Positions 17,513-47,577 of a stretch of DNA of 64,000 nt are shown here, one piece after another (position 1 is the stretch's first letter; the number at the start of each line of letters is the position of its first letter). The notes under the pieces were generated by a model. The model had not been told where the DNA came from, did no database searches, and saw only the letters and a program-made list of their open reading frames with translations. A program made the translations under genes and the position numbers. The DNA is from Patescibacteria group bacterium (GTDB taxonomy: Bacteria; Patescibacteriota; Minisyncoccia; Phycocordibacterales; Phycocordibacteraceae), in the NCBI GenBank assembly GCA_019752595.1, contig JAIELV010000001.1:378551-442550 (forward strand), given 5' to 3'.

Positions 17513-19162
17513 TTATACAGCTACAGTCGGATCTTTGGGACCTGCACGAAGCACTCCGAGAATAATGAGGGCAATCAAGGCAAATACGACAAACGCCACG
17601 ACACCGACAAGGGTTAAGTTACTTTGCAAAAGCGAAAGCGGAGTGACTTCAGGAGTTTCGGGTATCAAAAGCGGAGTAAATTCGGCAGCTTCCGCACGCT
17701 TTACGAACGGCACTGCAGGGCTTTTTGCCAAAATACGTCCACCTGCGTCAACGGTGGCAACATACAACTCGTGATTGCCATCCTCAAGCTCGGTGTCTAA
17801 GGTGTAACTCCATGCACCACTTGCATCTGCTTTCACTGTAACAACTACGGGCGTTGAAAACACATACAATGTGACGAAACTGTTTGGAAGCGCGCGTCCT
17901 GAAAACGTAACTTCTTCCTTAAACGCAGGTAACGAGGATATGTCGGATTTTACAGCCCCACTCGTGTCAGGTTCAGAATCAAAAGGTTTCAATGTGACAT
18001 TAATCGTGTGAACCTCGAACACATTTTCTGCTACTTCCCCTGCAACTTTTGGAGATTCAACAGGAACCTGTATAACATCCGTCGTAAGCACGTTAAAGCC
18101 AAGAAGCACGCGTTCGCCGTCCGTCAGGAAACTTCCTGAAGTATACGCATTCTGGGGATCCGTGTTGTATATGTTTTGCTCGTCGTAATTTGAAATACCG
18201 TCCCTGTCTACGTCTTCGTACAAACCAAGACCGCCACGACCCAAAAGTTCTTCCCGTGCCTTTGACACTTGCTCGGTGTTTTCCGAAACCACCTCCAGGA
18301 CCGTGCGTGCGGACGGTGAGAGGTCCACATCAACACCCGTGTCAGCTTTAATGAGCAAGCGGAGCTCATCAAGTGACGACTTCAACACTGGTTGCAGTTC
18401 GTTTGCTCCTACACGTTCGTCGCCTGAAGCGATGGTGGAGCGTACATCTTGAGAAAGTTTTGCAGTCAGCGTTTCAATACGCCTCCGACGCTCGTCCACA
18501 TCAAACGCGCGCGTTGATGGTTCTTTTGGCTCTCGAGTAGAAAGTTGCGCTTTGTCGAATGCGTTTTCTACTTCTCGCGTCACACGGTCGCGTACGGCAT
18601 TTTCTACTCTTCTCACCTCGCGCTGGAATTGTCGAAGTGATGCACCGATATCACTTATCATCTCCTGCGCGCCTGTATTCTCTGGAGTACGCTCTACACC
18701 AGGGAGTGCTCCCGTACTCGTTGCGGGAGTATCCCGTGGCACAGGAACAGGCGTGGGCACAGGAACAGGCTGCGTAATCAAAACGCGTGGCGCGGAGTCG
18801 TTTGGCTGAACGGGTGGTTGCACGACCGTAGTTCCAGTTGGTGGTGTCGACGTTGGAATAACTATCGGAACATACCAATCAGGAAGCTGAATCTGAATGT
18901 TACTAAGGTCTATGGTTGTCGTGGCAACGTCTTCGTCATCAGTGTCAGAACCCATCGGTTCATTCGTCCTCTCACCACCGTCTTCACCTACTTGCCGACT
19001 CGGATCCCATCCTGCAGGTCGAGTTGACGAGGAAACACCAAGCGCACCGACAGTGTTTGCGGTTAACGCATCTCCTGAGGTCAGGGCGTTCATACCACCT
19101 ATAAGGCCGACACAGAGGAGTGCGAACAACGAAAGCATGCCCAAAAGCGGTGCGGGCTTCAT
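17513..19162 (-). CDS. secreted/surface protein with Pro-rich linker, coiled coil, Ig-like domain and C-terminal TM anchor
   Basis: Signal peptide, PVPVPTPVPVP tract, Asp-rich calcium-binding-like DVDRDGISNYDE, C-terminal hydrophobic anchor. Confidence 0.6.
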   Translation of the reverse strand: MKPAPLLGMLSLFALLCVGLIGGMNALTSGDALTANTVGALGVSSSTRPAGWDPSRQVGEDGGERTNEPMGSDTDDEDVATTTIDLSNIQIQLPDWYVPIVIPTSTPPTGTTVVQPPVQPNDSAPRVLITQPVPVPTPVPVPRDTPATSTGALPGVERTPENTGAQEMISDIGASLRQFQREVRRVENAVRDRVTREVENAFDKAQLSTREPKEPSTRAFDVDERRRRIETLTAKLSQDVRSTIASGDERVGANELQPVLKSSLDELRLLIKADTGVDVDLSPSARTVLEVVSENTEQVSKAREELLGRGGLGLYEDVDRDGISNYDEQNIYNTDPQNAYTSGSFLTDGERVLLGFNVLTTDVIQVPVESPKVAGEVAENVFEVHTINVTLKPFDSEPDTSGAVKSDISSLPAFKEEVTFSGRALPNSFVTLYVFSTPVVVTVKADASGAWSYTLDTELEDGNHELYVATVDAGGRILAKSPAVPFVKRAEAAEFTPLLIPETPEVTPLSLLQSNLTLVGVVAFVVFALIALIILGVLRAGPKDPTVAV

Positions 19163-19222
19163 TAGGAGTATCGTACCACCACACTACAGCACCCTTAGGT
19201 CGCCCGAACGTTCGTGTGGAAA

Positions 19223-19894
19223 TCAGTTCTTATGGAAAAAACTGAACTTCGTATCGTGGTCGTAATGGTCAACTCCTTCTTTGTTTTTCAGAAACGCGAC
19301 GGCTTGATACGTAACTGGAGTGGCAAGAATTTCAATTGCCAACTTGAAGACGTAGTTTGAAACTGCGATAGAGATCAGGAGTTCGTTCGGCAAAATACCC
19401 CAAAACGCAATTGCAACGAACAAGGTTGTATCAAGAGCCTGCGCTACCACAGATGAACCAATGGTGCGCGCCCACAGATGTCTTCCTGAGGTCATTACTT
19501 TCATTTTTGCCAGTATGATCGCGTTCACGAAGGAGCCAAGAAAATATGCGACAAGACTTGCAAGAACAATACGAGGTGTCATGCCAAGAATTGCTTCATA
19601 TGCCGCTTGATGCGCCCAATCAGCTGCTGGCGGGAGCACACCAACAATTGACGTCATTAGCGCGAGGAGGAACGTTGAGAAAAAGCCCATCCAGATAACC
19701 GCACGCGCTTTTTTGAATCCATAGACCTCGGTCAGCACGTCTCCGAGGATGTACGCCAACGGAAACAGAAGAGTGCCCGCATCAAATACAAACCAGGTGA
19801 GGTCGGTAATTTTTGTCGAAACAATATTTGATATCAAAAGGACCGTAACAAAAAATACGGAAATGACTGTGAAGTATTTGTACGAGTGCGACAT
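19223..19894 (-). CDS. queuosine-precursor transporter family (YhhQ/DUF165-like) membrane protein
   Basis: Polytopic membrane protein with a YhhQ-like conserved pattern (SNI...K.....DxG......YxLxDVLTEVYG). Confidence 0.65.
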   Translation of the reverse strand: MSHSYKYFTVISVFFVTVLLISNIVSTKITDLTWFVFDAGTLLFPLAYILGDVLTEVYGFKKARAVIWMGFFSTFLLALMTSIVGVLPPAADWAHQAAYEAILGMTPRIVLASLVAYFLGSFVNAIILAKMKVMTSGRHLWARTIGSSVVAQALDTTLFVAIAFWGILPNELLISIAVSNYVFKLAIEILATPVTYQAVAFLKNKEGVDHYDHDTKFSFFHKN

Positions 19895-19899
19895 AATTT

Positions 19900-20718
19900 T
19901 TAAAGTTTATGAGTAAGATCTCCAACTGGAACGAGTGTAATACGATTTAGATTAGGGCTAAGTACTTTTACTAATCTGTGAAGACGTGCCATTTCGACAT
20001 CTAACTCTTCCTTGGATCTAATTCTTTGCTCCGAAAAGACGAAAAGCTTGCTTTCGACAAGCTCTATATCATGCCTCCATTCGTCCACATCTAATACTGC
20101 AAGCACATCTGGGGTCAGAATTTCAAATGCTTCTCGTTCGTACCCTTTTGGAGCATATAATCTGAATTTTTGATTGAATCCTGGGGGTGGTGAAACACGA
20201 GGAAGGAAAAACTCTTTTATTCCCGAAAGGCTTTTGTTGTGCGTGTTATTAAGATAGAAGTGTGGGAAGGTACCCGAAAACACTACTTCGAACACGGAGT
20301 AGAACCTATATTCGGCAGATTTACCAAAACCGTTTTGGTAGCTGTATTGAAAAAATCGAAAAGCGCGGTCCTCAATCGTTCCCATAAGTCCGTGTGTGGT
20401 TGATTTATTGTGACCTTCACGGAACATCAATGCATCATTTTGAAAGTACGGCTTCCAAACATACGTGTACCCGTATTCAGCTGCCAACTCTTTCCAAAAA
20501 CGTTCAGCGAGCTTTGAGAGATGAGAAACGTACAGCACCACGACTACCGACGCCAAAAATGCCGCGAGGACAAACACTCCTGCTACCACCTCTACGGGAA
20601 TGAGGGAAAAATAAATACTCGTAACGCCGAAAATTATAAGTAATACGTCAAGCAACGCAAAACCTAAGAGTATATACACGAATTGCTGTTCCGATACTTT
20701 TTGTTCGTTTTGAATCAT
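19900..20718 (-). CDS. membrane protein, hypothetical
   Basis: Two N-terminal TM helices. The longer ORF (to 20769) would overlap tRNA-Ser, so I chose the ATG at 20718. Confidence 0.5.
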   Translation of the reverse strand: MIQNEQKVSEQQFVYILLGFALLDVLLIIFGVTSIYFSLIPVEVVAGVFVLAAFLASVVVVLYVSHLSKLAERFWKELAAEYGYTYVWKPYFQNDALMFREGHNKSTTHGLMGTIEDRAFRFFQYSYQNGFGKSAEYRFYSVFEVVFSGTFPHFYLNNTHNKSLSGIKEFFLPRVSPPPGFNQKFRLYAPKGYEREAFEILTPDVLAVLDVDEWRHDIELVESKLFVFSEQRIRSKEELDVEMARLHRLVKVLSPNLNRITLVPVGDLTHKL

Positions 20719-20722
20719 AGAG

Positions 20723-20809
20723 CGGAGAGGGAGGGATTCGAACCCTCGGTACAGTTTCCCATACGCCACATTTCGAGTGTGGTGCCTTCGACCACTCAGC
20801 CACCTCTCC
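20723..20809 (-). tRNA. tRNA-Ser (anticodon CGA)
   Basis: Manual fold: acceptor GGAGAGG/CCTCTCC, anticodon loop CUCGAAA, long variable arm, T-loop GGTTCGAAT. No CCA encoded. Confidence 0.9.
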
Positions 20810-20929
20810 TTGGATGCAACTTCGCGATTCTAGCATTTTTCAATCAAAATGCTATATTTCAAGCCACGGCTTCATGCAATGAAGCCGCTCGGCTCATAAA
20901 GAGCGCCTTCTGCGATAGCAGAAGGATCG

Positions 20930-20969
20930 GCCCGCCAAACGTGCAGCTCTGCTCACGTTTGAGTGGCCT
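20930..20969. repeat. 40-bp direct repeat, copy 1, containing the hairpin AAACGTG...CACGTTT
   Basis: Identical to 21041-21080. Confidence 0.85.
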
Positions 20970-21040
20970 TCTTGAAACAGTTTTGCTCACGCAAAACCTC
21001 GGCTTAGAAAAAGCCCTTATCTGCTAAAGCAGATAACTCA

Positions 21041-21080
21041 GCCCGCCAAACGTGCAGCTCTGCTCACGTTTGAGTGGCCT
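21041..21080. repeat. 40-bp direct repeat, copy 2
   Basis: Identical to 20930-20969. Confidence 0.85.
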
Positions 21081-21127
21081 CGCTCGAAGAAAATGAATTC
21101 GTACACGATTCATTTTCCTTCTCGCTC

Positions 21128-21199
21128 GGCCCCATCGTCTAACGGCTAGGACGCATCCCTTTCACGGATGAAATCGGAGTTCGATTCTCCGTGGGGTCA
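21128..21199 (+). tRNA. tRNA-Glu (anticodon TTC)
   Basis: Manual fold: acceptor GGCCCCA/TGGGGTC, anticodon loop CTTTCAC, T-arm CGGAG-TTCGATT-CTCCG. Confidence 0.88.
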
Positions 21200-21204
21200 T
21201 GATT

Positions 21205-21232
21205 CATAAAACCGCCTTGTGGCGGTTTTTGT
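21205..21232 (+). terminator. rho-independent terminator after tRNA-Glu
   Basis: AACCGCCTTGTGGCGGTT followed by a T-run. Confidence 0.6.
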
Positions 21233-21348
21233 ATACATGAACTCAAGCGAGCAAACTGCTTTGCTCGCGTCTGGAGAATCGAAGGTGGTTGAGCATATGA
21301 GTGAGCAATACGAATGCGAAACCCGTACTGCTTCTGTAAGAAGCGATT

Positions 21349-21366
21349 CTCCGTGGGGTCACAAAG
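21349..21366 (+). repeat. 18-bp duplicate of the tRNA-Glu 3' end (CGATTCTCCGTGGGGTCA)
   Basis: Exact copy of tRNA-Glu 3' end 21182-21199, about 150 bp downstream. Followed by a long hairpin at 21363-21409. Confidence 0.8.
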
Positions 21367-21570
21367 TACAAAAAGCCGCCAAGCAGTTGGCGGCTTTTTG
21401 TACTTTGTGACGGACGGAGGCATGTTTTGTCAGCAGACAAAACAGCTGAGGCGGGGCAGAGAACACTTAGTATTTTACTCCCCCTGGGAGTAGAATACTT
21501 AGTGATTCGTGACCACTTTTTCTGCAATTGAAGAATGAAAACCGCCTCAAAAAACCATCGAATCTACACA

Positions 21571-21894
21571 ATGAGCGTCGCGCGCGTATACCCTTTGTAC
21601 ATTACAAAAGTAAAGAAAAAAGGACGCACAAAAGCTGAAGTTGATGAAGTCACTCGCTGGCTTACGGGGTATACGCAAAAACAACTCGAGGTGCATTTAA
21701 AAAAACAAACTGATTTCAAAACCTTCTTTGCGAAAGCGAAAATAAACCCCTCGCGAAAATTAATTAACGGCGTTGTGTGCGGCGTTCGCGTCGAAGACAT
21801 CAAAGAGCCCACTATGCAGGCTATACGCTATTTGGATAAACTTGTCGACGAACTAGCCAAAGGCAGACCGATAGAAAAAATCCTTCGAAAGTAA
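21571..21894 (+). CDS. small conserved hypothetical protein (DUF2200-like)
   Basis: About 108 aa starting [21 protein letters not shown]. The N-terminal pattern recalls the DUF2200 family. Family assignment is from memory. Confidence 0.45.
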
Positions 21895-21998
21895 ACTTTA
21901 CACTTTGAGCTAAGGGTATCCGAAAACACTCGAACGTAATTGCCAATTAGTTATTTACACCTTATCAAAGAAAAGAAAAGAAAAGAAATAATTTTAGC

Positions 21999-22214
21999 CT
22001 ACTGTTCAGAGCGGGCAGATTGAAGCCATGTGCGGAACAAATCAATCTTTCCCTGCTCTAGAGATAACACCTTCCCTGGCGTAAACGATTTTGCATATAC
22101 AACATCTTGTGAGGCGCCTACAAACACCCCCTGGACGGCATCAAATATATGTTTGCCGAATTGAAAGGCACGTATTCCTTGAATATCAGACACTCGAATA
22201 TACTCACCCGCCAT
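21999..22214 (-). CDS. hypothetical small protein
   Basis: 71-aa ORF with no motif. Confidence 0.25.
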   Translation of the reverse strand: MAGEYIRVSDIQGIRAFQFGKHIFDAVQGVFVGASQDVVYAKSFTPGKVLSLEQGKIDLFRTWLQSARSEQ

Positions 22215-22320
22215 ACACCCATTTAACTACTTTTCGGCAATCACGCAACAATTTCAGTAGTATTACAAACCGACGATTTTAACACTAGAAGAAATTTGCC
22301 TGCCCATAAGTGATACCATA

Positions 22321-22767
22321 ATGCATATGAACGAGACCGACTGGCAGACCCCTGATTTTATGAAGAAAAAGAATATCCCTCACTATTATGGTGATTCGGT
22401 GCGCAACATGTTTATTGCGTCCGCCGTAATCTACGCAATCGCGCTTCCCCTGTTTGGCAGCCTCTTACCCCTTAGTGTGTACGTCGGTATCGGTATCGTG
22501 CTTCTTCTGGTATTCCTTGCGGGTATCACGAACCCACACTCGCAGATACTCATGTTCATAAACGCGGGCGTTGCAGGGATTGGAGTCTATCTCATGCAGA
22601 CTGCCGCAATTTCTGGGTTCGGAGTAGATTCCACTGCTCTTTTCGTACTTCGCCAAATGGTCGTTATTCTATTATTGATAGCTTTCTACGACGCCGTCAA
22701 AACCGCTCGAAACATGCTCATAGGAAAAATCGGAACCGCCCCACAACCAGGAGAGTTCAGTAAATAA
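22321..22767 (+). CDS. membrane protein (3-4 TM), hypothetical
   Basis: Hydrophobic helices. Alternative starts are at 22327 and 22360. Confidence 0.5.
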   Translation: MHMNETDWQTPDFMKKKNIPHYYGDSVRNMFIASAVIYAIALPLFGSLLPLSVYVGIGIVLLLVFLAGITNPHSQILMFINAGVAGIGVYLMQTAAISGFGVDSTALFVLRQMVVILLLIAFYDAVKTARNMLIGKIGTAPQPGEFSK

Positions 22768-22793
22768 AACGCGAAACGCGCGCGTTACTCTAT

Positions 22794-22883
22794 TTAGAAA
22801 ACCTGTCTTTTACGTACTGAAGAATTTGCTGTTTTGCATAGTCGCGAACCAATCCTGCAAGCTCTGCGCTGTCTATCATCTTT
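22794..22883 (-). CDS. 29-aa small ORF (MIDSAELAGLVRDYAKQQILQYVKDRFSK) with a strong SD
   Basis: GGAGGAAAG-ATG is the only strong Shine-Dalgarno I noticed in the window. It lies downstream of a near-consensus sigma70-like promoter at about 23075-23103 on the minus strand. Confidence 0.3.
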   Translation of the reverse strand, partial: KDDRQRRACRIGSRLCKTANSSVRKRQVF

Positions 22884-23074
22884 CCTCCGTCGTTTCGACG
22901 TAGTCGTAAATTACCTCGGGACCAGGATTCTATTACAAAACGAAACGTTATGTATTTTTGTTTATAGACAAACGTGACTACACACGCAATTTCGCTTGCG
23001 TCGTGTTCAATATGACTTTCTTACACGTTCAAAACTGGTGTTGGGCGTCGGCGCTCCCTTCTTTCTGCCATTTA

Positions 23075-23103
23075 TATATTATAGCAGAAAAAGTATAATT
23101 GTC
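23075..23103 (-). promoter_or_regulatory. near-consensus sigma70-type promoter (TTGACA-16 nt-TATAAT) reading leftward
   Basis: The minus strand reads TTGACAATTATACTTTTTCTGCTATAAT. Confidence 0.45.
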
Positions 23104-23653
23104 AAAGATTCCCTAGTACGGCTTCGGCGGGCACTGCTCCTTCTCTTAGAATAATAGGTTGAATTCCGCGCGCATCAACAACTGTTGAGGGTAGAGAGTC
23201 GGGCAACACACCCTCATCGATTACCTCCGTAATCATCCCCGCGCGCTCTGCAAATTGCGCACGTATTTCTTTCGGTGACGAAAGTGTCGGTTGGTCTGCA
23301 ACATTTGCTGAAGTTGCTGTTATCGGCTTCCCCAACTCACGCACGAGGCGCAGCGGCACGGGATGATTCGGAATACGAACACCCACAGTCCCCGTCCCCG
23401 CAGTCAGATTGTCAGGAAGATTTTTTGCTTTCAAAACAATAGTGAGTCTCCCAGGAAGAAATTTCACCGTAAGCTTCTCAGCAAGAGGTGTAACTTCAGC
23501 GTACTGACGCATCATTTCTATACCAGAAACAACAATAGAAATTGGCTTGTTCTCATTGCGTCCCTTTAATTCAAAAAGACGCGAAACAGCCTCGGCGTCG
23601 GTTGCATCAACACCAAGACCGTAGATCGTGTCGGTTGGATAAAGAACAATCAC
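23102..23653 (-). CDS. tsaC: L-threonylcarbamoyladenylate synthase (TsaC/YrdC)
   Basis: PTDTIYGLG and KGRxxxKP motifs, 183 aa. Confidence 0.85.
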   Translation of the reverse strand: MIVLYPTDTIYGLGVDATDAEAVSRLFELKGRNENKPISIVVSGIEMMRQYAEVTPLAEKLTVKFLPGRLTIVLKAKNLPDNLTAGTGTVGVRIPNHPVPLRLVRELGKPITATSANVADQPTLSSPKEIRAQFAERAGMITEVIDEGVLPDSLPSTVVDARGIQPIILREGAVPAEAVLGNL

Positions 23654-23658
23654 TGAAG

Positions 23659-23991
23659 TTAGTGCTTACGCGGTTCGTTGGGTGTGAATGACGCTGGAAT
23701 TGCGTGTGTTCCAGATTTCCATGTTTTCACTATTTCCCGCATCCTGGCATTCCACACACCGCGTCCACCTTTTCTGTGGCTTATGCCCTTTTGCTCCCCA
23801 TGGTCAGTCCTCAAATAACTTCCACCCTGCCGTTCTTTTCCGATAGAGGAAGCTGTTGCCATACCTCTATAAAGTGTACGCCCATCATTTGGGACGTCAA
23901 GAAAGGCGCAGTAGAACTGTGGGTTAATCTTCAGAAAGCCCATCTGACCAGATGTACGCAGGGTCCTTGCCCTCTCGGGGACCGAGTTCAC
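23659..23991 (-). CDS. hypothetical protein
   Basis: 110-aa ORF, basic and Gly-rich, no clear motif. Confidence 0.3.
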   Translation of the reverse strand: MNSVPERARTLRTSGQMGFLKINPQFYCAFLDVPNDGRTLYRGMATASSIGKERQGGSYLRTDHGEQKGISHRKGGRGVWNARMREIVKTWKSGTHAIPASFTPNEPRKH

Positions 23992-24221
23992 GCGGCGTAC
24001 ACCTAGGGAAGGAAAAAGCGTCTGTGATTGGAATTTGAAATGCAGCTTCTTCGATTAGAATTTTTGAAGCTGCCACGGGAGTGATTTTCGGCTCTCTTTG
24101 ATCAGCAGTTTTCCTCGTGCGTGTTCTTTTTCTATCGCGCTCTGTAGACATAAGTTTCGAATTCTAACCAAATACCACTGGGGTTGCAAGGAATTTTGTT
24201 GCACGATATTGTACAAACTTC

Positions 24222-24294
24222 GGGCGGTTAGCTCAGTTGGTAGAGCATTCCCTTGACGTGGGAAGGGTCACAGGTTCGAATCCTGTATCGCCCA
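24222..24294 (+). tRNA. tRNA-Val (anticodon GAC)
   Basis: Manual fold: GGGCGGT acceptor, D-arm GCTCAGTTGGTAGAGC, anticodon loop TTGACGT, T-arm ACAGGTTCGAATCCTGT. Confidence 0.9.
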
Positions 24295-24300
24295 CTCGAT

Positions 24301-24567
24301 ATGAATCTTGAAGAAATTGAAAAAGAGATCTCGGCAATTCAAGAACGTAATAAAAAAGTCGAGACTGATAAAGCGTGGGAGGTGAGCCTAGCACGCAAGA
24401 TCCTTATTGCGGTCATGACGTACGTAGTCGTGCTTCTCGCACTATTTGTAGTAGAGGCACCGAATCCTTACTTGAATGCGTTTGTGCCGAGCACGGGTTT
24501 TCTTCTTTCAACGCTTTCGCTACCCTGGTTTAAAAAGAAGTGGATAGAATCGCGTAAACAAAAATAG
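24301..24567 (+). CDS. small membrane protein, hypothetical
   Basis: ATG immediately after tRNA-Val. Coiled N-terminus plus TM helices. Confidence 0.4.
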   Translation: MNLEEIEKEISAIQERNKKVETDKAWEVSLARKILIAVMTYVVVLLALFVVEAPNPYLNAFVPSTGFLLSTLSLPWFKKKWIESRKQK

Positions 24568-24592
24568 CGGGTGTAGGATTTCTCCTATACCT

Positions 24593-25168
24593 GTGGATCT
24601 CGAAAAACAAAAACTCCTGGTTCCACGCGTCCCACGAAGAGCAGTACTTGCAGGTCTGTTATTGCCGCTTGTGAAAACGGTTCCTGCGACGCGTGAAGAA
24701 CGACAACGACTTGCTGAGCAAAATATTTCACACCTTCCTGAAATAGTGCTTGCCGATTTGCGCGCGCGAACTTCGGGGGTCGGAGAAACCCATTTCGGCG
24801 ACGAGCTTGCTGCAGGCAGATTCCTGGCGAGTGAAAACGAGCTCGGGAGAGAAGTGAGCGCTGCCATACTTGAGCTCCAGGGCGAGGGCGACCAAAAGAT
24901 AGCCCCTGATCTTGCAGAAGCACAGGTGTATTGGCTACTCAGAAATTCTGGGCATGGTCAAAGGCTGTCGCGTACAGAACGTGAAGCTATTGTTGCTCTT
25001 TCAAATTGGTGGCCTGAGATCTTTGAGCCGTATTACGACGACGGAGATGGTTCGCGCCGCACGCTTGTTGAAGAAATGCGAAACTACCCCTCGCTTCAAA
25101 GAGCTTTTGAAAGAAGCGGGCGTCAAGACATAGAAGTTGCCGACGCGAAATCCCGCTCATCCGACTAA
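24593..25168 (+). CDS. hypothetical protein (GTG start)
   Basis: 191-aa ORF with no motif. Confidence 0.45.
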   Translation: MDLEKQKLLVPRVPRRAVLAGLLLPLVKTVPATREERQRLAEQNISHLPEIVLADLRARTSGVGETHFGDELAAGRFLASENELGREVSAAILELQGEGDQKIAPDLAEAQVYWLLRNSGHGQRLSRTEREAIVALSNWWPEIFEPYYDDGDGSRRTLVEEMRNYPSLQRAFERSGRQDIEVADAKSRSSD

Positions 25169-25193
25169 AGTGCTATACTAAGTATAGCACTTT
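25167..25193. repeat. 27-bp perfect palindrome AAAGTGCTATACT-A-AGTATAGCACTTT, a family member of 2573-2601
   Basis: Sits between the convergent 3' ends of the 24593 ORF and orn. Confidence 0.8.
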
Positions 25194-25203
25194 GCGTGGG
25201 CAC

Positions 25204-25767
25204 TTAGAGGGAAAGGAGTTTGGTGCGGTAGTATTTCAACTCCTCAATAGAGCGAAGAATATCTTCTTTCGCGCGATGCGCTTTCTCCCCTTTCATGTTT
25301 TGCCACTCGTCATACAGCTCAGGTTTCCACCTGCGTGCAAGTTCTTTCAGAGTTGAAACATCAATGTTTCTATAAAACAGGTGGTCATACACCGTCGGCA
25401 TTTGTGCTTTCAAAAACATTCTATCCATGTGTACAGAATTTCCGCACAGTGGGGCTGTTCCTGCTTCTGCGTGTTCAGAAATGAATGAGAACAATTCTTT
25501 TTCTGCTTCAGCGAGGGTCACGACGCTTGCAACAGACGCTTCTAAAACTCCGCTCTTTTCATGAAGCGCTTTCACTTCGGGAGTGATACGGTCAAATGCG
25601 CTTCTGTCCGCGTGGATTGTAATTTCAGGGCCTTCAGCAACAATGTTCAATTCTTTGTCGGTAATCACCGTTGCAACCTGAATAATTTGATCCGTATTCA
25701 CATCTGCCAAGGACGTCATTTCAACATCCATCCATACCCACAGGTCGCTTCGTGTATGCATATTCAT
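25204..25767 (-). CDS. orn: oligoribonuclease (DEDDh 3'-5' exonuclease)
   Basis: WMDVEMTSL exo I motif and H-x4-D exo III motif, about 187 aa. Confidence 0.85.
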   Translation of the reverse strand: MNMHTRSDLWVWMDVEMTSLADVNTDQIIQVATVITDKELNIVAEGPEITIHADRSAFDRITPEVKALHEKSGVLEASVASVVTLAEAEKELFSFISEHAEAGTAPLCGNSVHMDRMFLKAQMPTVYDHLFYRNIDVSTLKELARRWKPELYDEWQNMKGEKAHRAKEDILRSIEELKYYRTKLLSL

Positions 25768-25833
25768 ATCAGGAAACAGTGTAGCGTACCTCGCCGTTTT
25801 TTACACAACAACTACCAATACCATATCACACCT

Positions 25834-25867
25834 ATGTCACTATGTTACCATGGTAACATAGTGACAT
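25834..25867. promoter_or_regulatory. 34-bp perfect palindrome ATGTCACTATGTTACCATGGTAACATAGTGACAT upstream of orn
   Basis: Seen in sequence in the orn 5' region. Confidence 0.6.
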
Positions 25868-25923
25868 ATATACACGCCACACATTCCGCATGTAAATACT
25901 AGACAATTTAAATACTGTGTAAT

Positions 25924-26577
25924 TTAAATAATATGCAAAAGCTCGGGAAGCACACTCACCTGCTTCCATGCAGCCCCCCTCAATTCCTCTGTGCCATTAC
26001 CAACAAGCACCCCGCGTCCCGTATACCGAAAACCCTCAATATCATTAATTGAATCTCCTACAAACAGTATTTCTTCTGGCTTCGCACCCACTTTATCGCC
26101 GAAGTCCTTGAGAGCTCTTACTTTCGCCTGAAGCTCGTCAGAATCTTCGTTATACGCAATTCCAGAAAACACACCGTCCGTATACACAAACGATGTGTAT
26201 GAATACGCATGCTGTATGCCAAGCGCTTCGGCTACAGAACGTACGTAATCTGTGAGTCCTGAAGAAATGACGGCGAGAGGGTATTTTTTTAGAAGAACAT
26301 CGGCGACCTCTTTCGCACCTGGAAGCAGTCGGAAGTTTTTAAAAACACTGTCTGCCTGCTCTTTCGTAATGCCTGGTGTTTTTTTAAGATACAAATCCGC
26401 CATCATGTCGGTTACTGCACGAAAAGAAAGTGCGCCATCGACATACAGTCTGTGCAACCGCACATTGTCTTCGCGGGACAAACCGAAAAGCACGTGCAAT
26501 TCCTCCCACACATAAGAATCAATAAGAGTGCCGTCAACGTCAAACGCGACGGCTTTGATAGCAGGCATTTCTCCCAT
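25924..26577 (-). CDS. HAD-superfamily hydrolase
   Basis: FDVDGTL motif I, and motif IV GDSxND. Confidence 0.8.
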   Translation of the reverse strand: MGEMPAIKAVAFDVDGTLIDSYVWEELHVLFGLSREDNVRLHRLYVDGALSFRAVTDMMADLYLKKTPGITKEQADSVFKNFRLLPGAKEVADVLLKKYPLAVISSGLTDYVRSVAEALGIQHAYSYTSFVYTDGVFSGIAYNEDSDELQAKVRALKDFGDKVGAKPEEILFVGDSINDIEGFRYTGRGVLVGNGTEELRGAAWKQVSVLPELLHII

Positions 26578-47424: not shown

Positions 47425-47503
47425 GATGCTTGGGGTATGAATACATACTCAAGCACCTCATTCAACAATGCCGAAGCGAGCTTTGTCGTTGTATTCATTT
47501 CGG

Positions 47504-47577
47504 TGCTTGGGGTGAGATTCGAACTCACGACCCCTCCCTCTTCAGGGGAGTGCTCTAACCAACTGAGCTACCCAAGC
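47504..47577 (-). tRNA. tRNA-Phe (anticodon GAA)
   Basis: Manual fold: GCTTGGG acceptor, anticodon loop CTGAAGA, T-arm GTGAGTTCGAATCTCAC. Confidence 0.9.

Follow-up and report, generated by a model that had tools for sequence, protein, structure and literature searches.

What is an exact second copy of the end of a transfer RNA (tRNA) gene doing a short distance downstream of the first? The question is raised by a 64,000-nucleotide (nt) stretch of contig JAIELV010000001.1 of a Patescibacteria group bacterium, here called the window, in which the 3′ end of a tRNA-Glu gene recurs behind the gene itself. A preliminary description had noticed the repeat and had offered two explanations, a decayed or excised remnant of a larger integrated element or a miniature one. 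The stretch in question, at 21200-21361, is in fact one copy of a family of non-coding, structured units of about 130-170 nt, and its membership in this family is secure. As to what the family does, there is about an even chance that it consists of miniature insertion elements that are non-autonomous and specific for the 3′ ends of tRNA genes. This mobile reading is the better supported of two live hypotheses; the other takes the units for RNAs cognate to their neighbouring tRNAs, and the two are not mutually exclusive.

The displaced end of tRNA-Glu

The tRNA-Glu gene (anticodon UUC, no encoded CCA) lies at 21128-21199 on the plus strand, as do the repeat copies, the parts of the element, and the C-type module described below. 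It is called by ARAGORN, matches Rfam RF00005 with 58.8 bits, and an identical gene is present in the relatives L112-L123 (L numbers denote the loci compared). Its last 18 nt, CGATTCTCCGTGGGGTCA, form the proximal repeat copy B1 (21182-21199), which comprises T-loop nucleotides 56-60, the 3′ strand of the T stem, the 3′ strand of the acceptor stem, and the discriminator. The distal copy B2, identical in sequence, is found at 21344-21361, having first been placed 5 nt too far to the right, at 21349-21366; it is at once the 3′ arm of the pairings P1 and P0 described below and the displaced native tRNA 3′ end. These are the only two exact occurrences of the 18-mer in the 64 kb, and no third copy appears in the window even when up to three mismatches are allowed. 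With 0.05 matches expected in shuffled sequence and two or more matches in none of 100 shuffles, the recurrence reported in the preliminary description is borne out, and so is its att-like character, since the duplication runs from T-loop position 56 to the discriminator and is followed at B2 by the native flank. The copies are spaced 162 nt start to start with 144 nt in between, close to the interval of roughly 150 bp first given, and their identity ends abruptly, on the left at TT versus AG and on the right at T versus C.

Which of the two ends is the original one? B2 is followed by CAAAGT, a long hairpin, TTTGTGA and GGAGGCATGT, and the same order is found after an intact tRNA-Glu in L125 and L001. 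Because the sequence following B2 there follows an intact gene, B2 is the displaced native end, while B1 is the copy joined to foreign sequence. The base after B1 is a T, belonging to the foreign leader, whereas it is a C in every native tRNA-Glu context. The filled left junction of the element thus reads GGGGTCA / TGATTCAT, the empty junction between the tRNA-Glu end and its native flank reads GGAGTTCGATTCTCCGTGGGGTCA / CAAAGTAC, and the junction predicted for a circle or a tandem would be TGTAAGAAG / CGATTCTCCGTGGGGTCA / TGATTCAT. A decayed tandem duplicate of tRNA-Glu was considered and rejected, as nothing upstream of the distal 18-mer resembles a tRNA body.

Relatives of the locus were reached through homologues (P0002-P0011) of the adjacent DUF2200 gene (21535-21894). 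This gene family is horizontally scattered in genome contigs, among which only L001 is syntenic and L025 belongs to the candidate phyla radiation (CPR); the genes around the window locus are housekeeping ones (ftsA, ftsZ, aldolase, TsaD, LepA, and a class I aminoacyl-tRNA synthetase). Several arrangements occur behind tRNA-Glu. In L117 and L119-L123 the DUF2200 open reading frame (ORF) follows within 5 nt, and in L112 and L114 a different gene follows. In L125 and L126, whose DUF2200 is 86% identical, GGAGTTCGATTCTCCGTGGGGTCA runs straight into CAAAAATTC, the long hairpin, TTTGTGA, CGGAGCGATG and then DUF2200, the part before DUF2200 being the C-type module discussed further on. The more distant but syntenic L001, a Nomurabacteria metagenome-assembled genome (MAG), also has C-type sequence directly after tRNA-Glu. 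Compared with this arrangement of tRNA-Glu, C module and DUF2200, the window has 162 extra bp, that is, one 18-mer plus 144 nt, and among the relatives with an identical tRNA-Glu the window alone has them. The 162 bp are therefore an insertion/deletion polymorphism, the size difference among related genomes for which a locus comparison had been proposed. Its polarity can be read from the flanks: the native flank is attached to the distal copy, and the proximal copy lies inside the tRNA and is followed by foreign sequence starting with a terminator-like hairpin. Such a polarity is expected of an element that restores the tRNA on entry and pushes the original 3′ fragment aside, in keeping with the finding that integration into a tRNA gene regenerates it and displaces a 3′ piece (PMC4383910).

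The element itself has a modular architecture. It opens with a leader (21200-21237), recognized in the sequence, as part of inverted repeat I2 and in the predicted fold, whose terminator-like hairpin AAAACCGCC (21208-21216) / GGCGGTTTT (21221-21229) is followed by a T run; comparable hairpins stand at the same position in L134, L135, L145, L146, L148, L156, L159, L167, and L171. A scan with a terminator consensus called neither this hairpin (21208-21230) nor the one at 21373-21396, the T run lying partly inside the stem as the scan defines it. Next comes a 5′ arm, P0 (TGAACTCA, 21238-21245, likewise part of I2), which is antisense to the acceptor 3′ strand TGGGGTCA and pairs at 7 of its 8 positions (6 Watson-Crick and 1 G-T, with 1 mismatch). 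It is followed by the conserved hairpin hpD (21246-21270), made of AGC, a 9-bp stem (21247-21255 / 21260-21268) closed by the loop CTGC, and GT. The second 5′ arm, P1 (GGAGAATCGAA, 21273-21283), corresponds to inverted repeat I13 and is also seen in the fold. It is antisense to the T loop and the T-stem 3′ strand, being an 11-nt perfect complement of TTCGATTCTCC at 21180-21190 and complementary over 9 nt to 21344-21352. A junction AAGGT then leads into the P2 domain (21284-21323), in which GGTT (21287-21290) pairs with AACC (21320-21323) around an inner stem GCAT/ATGC; P2 is here of the "GAGCATATG" variant, also present in L130, L132, L141, L143, L145, L148, L150, and L171. Finally, the segment 21324-21343 carries the conserved junction CGTACTG and the hairpin P3 (21331-21343), a 4-bp stem CTTC/GAAG with a TGTAA loop. 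Where the preliminary description had seen two hairpins between the copies, three can thus be described (21208-21229, 21247-21268, and 21331-21343), together with the inverted arm that had been overlooked. The hairpin announced after the second copy exists as well, although its perfect stem is of 25 bp (21358-21382 / 21387-21411) and not 19. The predicted fold of 21200-21361 has the same helices as the rest of the family, with z = -3.9.

A shared core with tRNA-specific arms

Just before its distal copy, L001 shares with the window the succession AAACC(C/T)GTACTG-stem-TGTAA-stem-CGATTC, with compensatory changes in the stem. A 31-nt signature, AAACCYGTACTGNNNNTGTAANNNNCGATTC, was built from this shared stretch, with 8 stem positions left free. 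It has 44 exact matches in metagenome contigs and none in 2.9 million viral contigs. Since 22 fixed positions served to select these 44 matches, their conservation is circular there, and the structural argument is based on the free positions and on 18 additional matches to the model described below. All but a few truncated matches have in common a unit of about 150 nt with a fixed order: leader, P0 arm, AGC-hairpin-GT (hpD), P1 (xxxGAATCG, antisense to CGATTCxxx), AAAAGG, P2 (a long hairpin with two sequence variants), AAACCYGTACTG, P3 with its TGTAA loop, and the copy of the tRNA 3′ end. The stretch from AAAAGG to P3 makes up a conserved three-way core. P0 is perfect over 9-10 nt in L134, L139, L141, L145, L153, L159, and L163, and weak or absent in many other members. 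Leaders lacking the terminator-like hairpin (L129-L132, L141, L153, and L172) have a common purine-rich motif, (A)ACGAACGAAGTGAGTGA, between the tRNA and P0.

In most loci the signature is preceded by a tRNA that ARAGORN calls on the same strand at a distance of about 70-150 nt, be it tRNA-Arg (CCU, UCU), Glu (UUC, CUC), Gly (UCC, CCC, GCC), Cys, His, Pro, Lys, or Leu. At least 12 kinds of tRNA are occupied in this way, and so is transfer-messenger RNA (tmRNA), which is the upstream gene in L134 and L145. Every unit closes with a repeat of the end of its own tRNA, from the T loop to the discriminator. These repeats are exact over 18-24 nt in the younger-looking copies, with a left boundary that is sharp and constant at T-loop position 56 and a right boundary that varies. 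The spacing between repeats, start to start, ranges from 116 to 214 nt and is mostly 135-176, so that the window copy, with an 18-nt repeat and a spacing of 162 nt, is typical.

A covariance model of the unit, R1, has 58 matches in CPR-related loci plus one in the window, at 21220-21365 (96.3 bits, E = 9e-23, R1 E-values being rough). The latter is the sole match in the 64 kb over which other copies in the source genome were sought, and one of the six tRNAs of the window carries the element. Control loci totalling 791 kb, among them 49 from other phyla and 31 from phages that have the window's 18-mer in their tRNA-Glu, contain a single match, in the Patescibacteria MAG L025. The window, L001, and L025 carry taxonomic names, and the metagenome contigs are presumed to be of CPR origin. 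The extra R1 matches include divergent members behind tRNA-Leu(UAA), tRNA-Leu(CAG), and tRNA-Ala, in which the P1 arms and the terminal copies match their own T loops (CAACTC, CGAGTC, CAAATCC) and not CGATTC. Because these members follow their own T loops, the CGATTC of the signature comes from the target and is no intrinsic part of the element. What the family has in common is its core, while the arms are specific to each tRNA. A retroviral-type primer-binding site was rejected as the meaning of these arms, as they match the genomic trailer (…CAC) and not a CCA end.

Could the 144 bp nevertheless be what decay or deletion has left of an ordinary integrated prophage, island, or integrative plasmid, with the 18-mers as attL and attR? 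The geometry of the repeats and the native flank after the distal copy would suit such an origin, and tRNA genes are the usual targets of tyrosine integrases (PMC4383910). Yet random deletions would not leave the same size, sequence, and covarying fold in more than 50 copies at more than 12 tRNA species. The element holds no fragment of an integrase nor any ORF remnant, it has no similarity to deposited phages and plasmids and no match in viral contigs, and islands at tRNA genes have their length peaks near 13.6 and 39.9 kb (PMC4383910). The idea of a remnant, one of the two first put forward, fails before a unit of near-constant size, conserved sequence, and covarying structure that recurs at many tRNAs and in many metagenomes; it is already largely refuted and must be considered very improbable. 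The miniature element is the better fit of the two, the family and the internal antisense arms having escaped the preliminary description. An origin from phages was also rejected: all 31 viral-contig matches of the 18-mer are phage tRNA-Glu genes, none of them being an attP and none carrying the element.

Neither does a local origin account for these observations. The repeat could have arisen by a tandem-inversion duplication, which yields a direct-inverted-direct layout, or by replication slippage seeded by the palindromic terminator after the tRNA. The order B1, inverted copy, B2, and the terminator-like palindrome between B1 and the inverted arm, are what such events would give, and the tRNA-Phe gene of the window has a smaller direct-inverted-direct arrangement of its own that has no conserved core. 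What they leave unexplained is a core (hpD, P2, GTACTG, and P3) common to copies at unrelated tRNAs in many metagenomes, and a left boundary held sharply and constantly at position 56 of the T loop. Local duplication is contradicted by the conservation of the core and can be given very little credence as a general explanation, yet it could explain how the arms first arose.

Is the fold itself real? A hand-specified structure (hpD, P1, P2, and P3) was tested on a 40-member alignment. Paired cells make up 89% of the alignment, against 74% in column shuffles and 33-50% with slid partners. Double changes affect 211 cells where 78 are expected and are found in 21 of the 32 pairs, and the observed covariation score is reached by none of 500 shuffles. 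P3 is the cleanest structural evidence: its four variable pairs, which were unconstrained Ns in the search pattern, are complementary in 40 of 40 members, with 17-20 double changes each. In hpD all 9 pairs have changed on both sides somewhere across the 40 members, and in P1 the three outer pairs vary in step with the T stem of the tRNA behind which each member lies. Such compensatory changes place the fold under selection as a structured single-strand element, whether RNA or single-stranded DNA. Nothing of the kind is described in the databases and literature consulted: Rfam 15 gives no match at E ≤ 1 over window positions 18000-26000 besides the tRNAs and spurious hairpin matches, no Rfam family matches any of ten family members, and a literature search, which is not proof of absence, turned up no account of elements like these. 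Hammerhead, twister, pistol, hatchet, and tmRNA-like RNAs were rejected as candidates, there being neither a core match nor an Rfam match.

Insertion element or tRNA-cognate RNA

The second hypothesis is that of a functional RNA. The unit may be a structured RNA gene serving the host, or a cis-acting tRNA trailer, that mimics the acceptor and T stem of the neighbouring tRNA. The partner of its antisense arms would then be either the tRNA 3′ end or the 3′ copy within the unit, the duplication being a structural part and not the scar of an insertion, and the roles of the unit could lie in 3′-end processing, termination, quality control, or as a decoy. Besides the strong covariation and the stability of the predicted fold, unpaired motifs are highly conserved (GAATCGAAAAGG, GTACTG, and the TGTAA loop), and the arms remain complementary to the real tRNA even when the distal copy decays. 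The element ends like a tRNA, because P0 and the first 5 bp of P1 reproduce the acceptor stem and the T stem; it often abuts the next tRNA in arrays (L136, L142, L160, and L162), and the family is kept in very small genomes. In the window, an AT-rich TATACA box before P0 and a strong terminator-like hairpin after B2 resemble the layout of a small RNA gene. Against this, the element is dispensable: close relatives have an identical tRNA-Glu without it, zero, one, or two copies occur at one and the same junction, and one in six tRNAs is occupied in the window. Copies that are truncated or stand in identical tandem are common, as are decayed distal arms; G-U pairs enjoy no preference over A-C, and in many members a terminator-like hairpin stands between the tRNA and the element. 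On balance, a host-serving RNA or trailer appears less likely than mobility, and less likely than not.

Other observations point to turnover or mobility of the copies. The junction between tRNA-Cys and tRNA-Leu(UAA) is empty in L166, holds a single copy in L136, and holds two different copies in L144. Two identical tandem copies are found in L153, partial second copies in L137, L149, and L150, and 5′-truncated units in L171 and L140. The order of stacking differs too: in the window the tRNA is followed by the present element (A) and then by the C-type module, in L001 by the C-type module and then by a degenerate A (24.5 bits), a difference that is expected if new units insert beside the tRNA, and not if one ancestral arrangement has been inherited. 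L144 has four family members in 12 kb, lying within 3 kb (1-2922) around tRNA-Cys, tRNA-Leu(UAA), and tRNA-Leu(CAG). Two different subtypes stand there in tandem behind tRNA-Cys, and one of them has a core identical over 42 nt to that of the tRNA-Leu(UAA) element (identity 0.86 overall), whereas the latter is only 0.52-0.64 identical to the tRNA-Leu(UAA) elements of other contigs. These identities indicate that the core has spread, or has been converted, from one tRNA locus to another within a genome. Decay affects the distal copies, the tRNA copy being kept intact, and among 14 cases in which the two differ the antisense arm is the better fit to the real tRNA in 9 and the poorer in 1. Empty and filled sites, multiple copies per genome, and related copies at non-homologous sites, all of them general traits of mobile elements, are thus observed, with the direction of change not polarised.

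How might so small a unit move? Its target would be the T-loop-to-3′-end segment of tRNA genes, of which about 18 nt are duplicated. Insertion may proceed by att-type (Campbell-like) recombination within the repeat, in the T loop or at the T/acceptor junction, both of which are among the crossover subsites known for tRNA genes (PMC4383910). The recombinase would be supplied in trans and encoded elsewhere. The antisense arms could fold back on the element's own copy of the tRNA end and so present a duplex mimic of the target, in the manner of integron attC sites and of the attP of the CTX phage; alternatively, they could act as a guide in the choice of target.

Several observations weigh against mobility. 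No recombinase, transposase, or reverse transcriptase is encoded in or beside the element, nor among the 30 ORFs of the window scanned with Pfam, and none of the 44 signature matches is an autonomous, gene-carrying relative or has an ORF or integrase between its repeats. A classical tyrosine integrase is poorly served by a circle of 162 bp, and classical att sites need neither an internal antisense copy of 18-20 nt nor a covarying three-way junction. These two features suit a functional RNA at least as well, and the tRNA-like geometry of the acceptor and T stem joined to the conserved junction would suit one too. Mismatch counts carry no strand signal, because G-U (46) and A-C (37) are about equally frequent, so that RNA and single-stranded DNA cannot be told apart as the folded species. 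A strong P0 arm is found in only about a quarter of the members, and the L140 element persists although its upstream tRNA has decayed. The "empty" relatives are 86-93% identical in DUF2200, which leaves gain versus loss unpolarised, and loss by recombination between the 18-bp repeats would look alike; among the compared contigs there is no strain-level pair of empty and filled sites and no circular or excised form. The cores shared within one genome, finally, could stem from gene conversion and not from transposition.

Neighbouring modules and known systems

The element is not the only structured unit at this place. Between B2 and the DUF2200 gene (21535-21894) lies the C-type module (21362-21523), preceded by the start of its 25-bp hairpin with a terminator-like core (21358-21411) and continuing with CGGAGGCATG, a hairpin, GAGGCGGGGC, a further hairpin, and GTGACCAC. 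The tRNA-Glu end finds a complement here too, in the first segments of the module (GTGAC, CGGAG). Homologues occur at five other loci in all, after tRNA-Glu (L125, L001), after tRNA-Val (L001), and after copies of the element (L140, L167), and the module is absent from L117-L123. It has no Rfam match, and its pattern has zero matches in viral contigs. In L128 (140-250) a C-type module stands directly upstream of an apparent split tRNA-Ser 3′ end, GAATCCCTCC and CCCTCTCCGC being about 62 nt apart, with DUF2200 downstream.

On the other side of tRNA-Glu, two D1 modules are found between tRNA-Ser and tRNA-Glu (window 20880-21100), with a spacing of 111 nt and a 61-nt core that is 89% identical, 40 nt of it being identical. 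Relatives have none (L112 and L114, with a 58-nt spacer) or one (L117-L123), inserted precisely where tRNA-Glu begins. The D1 modules resemble the C-type (AGGCC-hairpin-GGCGGGC) when they are read on the minus strand, and they contain terminator-like hairpins. The tRNA-Ser/tRNA-Glu pair is a rearrangement hotspot in L112-L114 and L117-L123, the relatives of window positions 19200-24300: two diverged DUF2200 genes flank it in L113 and L118, and it sits between DUF2200 and a Vut_1 transporter gene in L112 and L114. The gene content between tRNA-Glu and tRNA-Val also differs among the window, L001, and L119. A tRNA-Glu on a phage contig (L087, IMG/VR UViG_3300010885_080919, 476-750) is interrupted by an intron-like insert of about 200 nt after the anticodon-loop region, and this gene is not called by ARAGORN.

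The arrangement at tRNA-Phe (47502-47577, minus strand) is smaller. Its 3′ end ACCCCAAGCA recurs 77 nt downstream, at 47427-47436, just before the ATG of the next ORF, and between the copies (region 47427-47513) stand an inverted copy GGTGCTTG (47450-47457) and a 9-bp inverted repeat ATGAATACA/TGTATTCAT. The layout is direct-inverted-direct like that of tRNA-Glu, with no conserved core and no R1 match. The ends of tRNA genes appear to be general landing or birth sites for end-mimicking modules in this lineage.

These considerations can be joined in one broader proposal, held tentatively and with less than even confidence. The units may represent a new class of ORF-less modules of about 150 nt that recognize tRNA and tmRNA genes by built-in antisense arms or, alternatively, a "shadow" RNA partner of each tRNA, a kind of tRNA-cognate regulator not described before. 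As modules, they would have arms that pair with the 3′ end of the tRNA, serving either as a split guide or to mimic the target by folding back, and would insert at T-loop position 56 or at the 3′ end, rebuilding the tRNA, with arms re-specified for each new tRNA. If this is true, then together with the C-type and D1-type modules and the tRNA-Phe arrangement, CPR tRNA ends would host an ecology of end-mimicking structured modules. Classic landing sites of integrating elements, tRNA genes have known occupants that are kilobase-sized and bring an integrase along; the occupant described here is tightly folded, has no genes and measures 150 nt, and in it the tRNA end is copied both directly and in antisense. 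A mobile unit of this kind would be the smallest tRNA-targeting insertion element of which we are aware, and would suggest that a phylum with little known mobile DNA has a recombination system that acts in trans and is possibly directed by structure or by a guide; a functional RNA would make up a new tRNA-cognate class. The units are also an issue for annotation, since the tRNA fragments to which they give rise will mislead island finders and tRNA predictors. The covariance model and the 31-nt signature make both readings testable in public data.

How does the family compare with known systems? Among tRNA-like RNAs, such as the tRNA-like domain of tmRNA, the YrlA/Y RNA modules, and the tRNA-derived short interspersed elements, the acceptor and T stem, the placement in tRNA arrays, and an end at the discriminator position are all found again. 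Unlike them, the present element has its T loop paired, has one hairpin in place of the D and anticodon arms, and mimics in each copy its own neighbouring tRNA; it has no Rfam match.

Guide systems pair element and target in several ways: IS200/IS605 elements by pairing of a guide with the cleavage site, IS110/IS1111 elements by bridge or seek RNAs, and type V-K CRISPR-associated transposons by homing CRISPR RNAs that match tRNA genes. The likeness lies in element sequences that are complementary or identical to the flanking target, and in a scaffold of about 130 nt followed by about 18-20 nt derived from the target. The differences are that no transposase, TnpB, or Cas gene is linked to the element here, and that guide systems do not duplicate 18 nt of their target. 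To our knowledge, no such guide system is known from ORF-less units of 150 nt.

Integron attC sites, of 57-141 nt, and the attP(+) of the CTX phage are recombination sites folded from a single strand. They resemble the present units in their direct-inverted-direct core, in a structure conserved over sequence, in size, and in a branched, variable tip. By inspection, however, there is no GTTRRRY-type core at the boundaries and no cassette array, nor is there an integron integrase; the target is a tRNA, and the arms are of 18-22 nt.

Cis-mobilizable elements (CIMEs) are kilobase-sized deletion derivatives of a known streptococcal integrative and conjugative element (ICE), and miniature inverted-repeat transposable elements (MITEs) have terminal inverted repeats and short, fixed target duplications. 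Like both, the present units are non-coding, bounded by target repeats, presumably mobilized in trans, and present in multiple copies per genome. Unlike them, they have no autonomous partner among the contigs compared; their ends, TGATTCAT... and ...GTAAGAAG, are not inverted repeats, and the duplication is of 18-24 nt with a variable right boundary.

A last comparison is with the integrative elements of tRNA and tmRNA genes, that is, prophages, ICEs, and islands with tyrosine integrases. Shared with them are a tRNA 3′ segment duplicated exactly from within the T loop, an intact gene regenerated by element-borne sequence, a displaced 3′ fragment kept on the native flank, the use of tRNA and tmRNA targets, and tandem arrays beside the tRNA. 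Against typical sizes of 13.6 and 39.9 kb (PMC4383910), the present element is of about 0.16 kb and uniform in size, and it has neither genes nor kilobase-scale cargo, 144 nt being too short for an integrase gene and none being found in 44 copies. What sets the family apart from them is a covarying single-strand fold, an internal antisense copy of the target, and related cores at many tRNAs.

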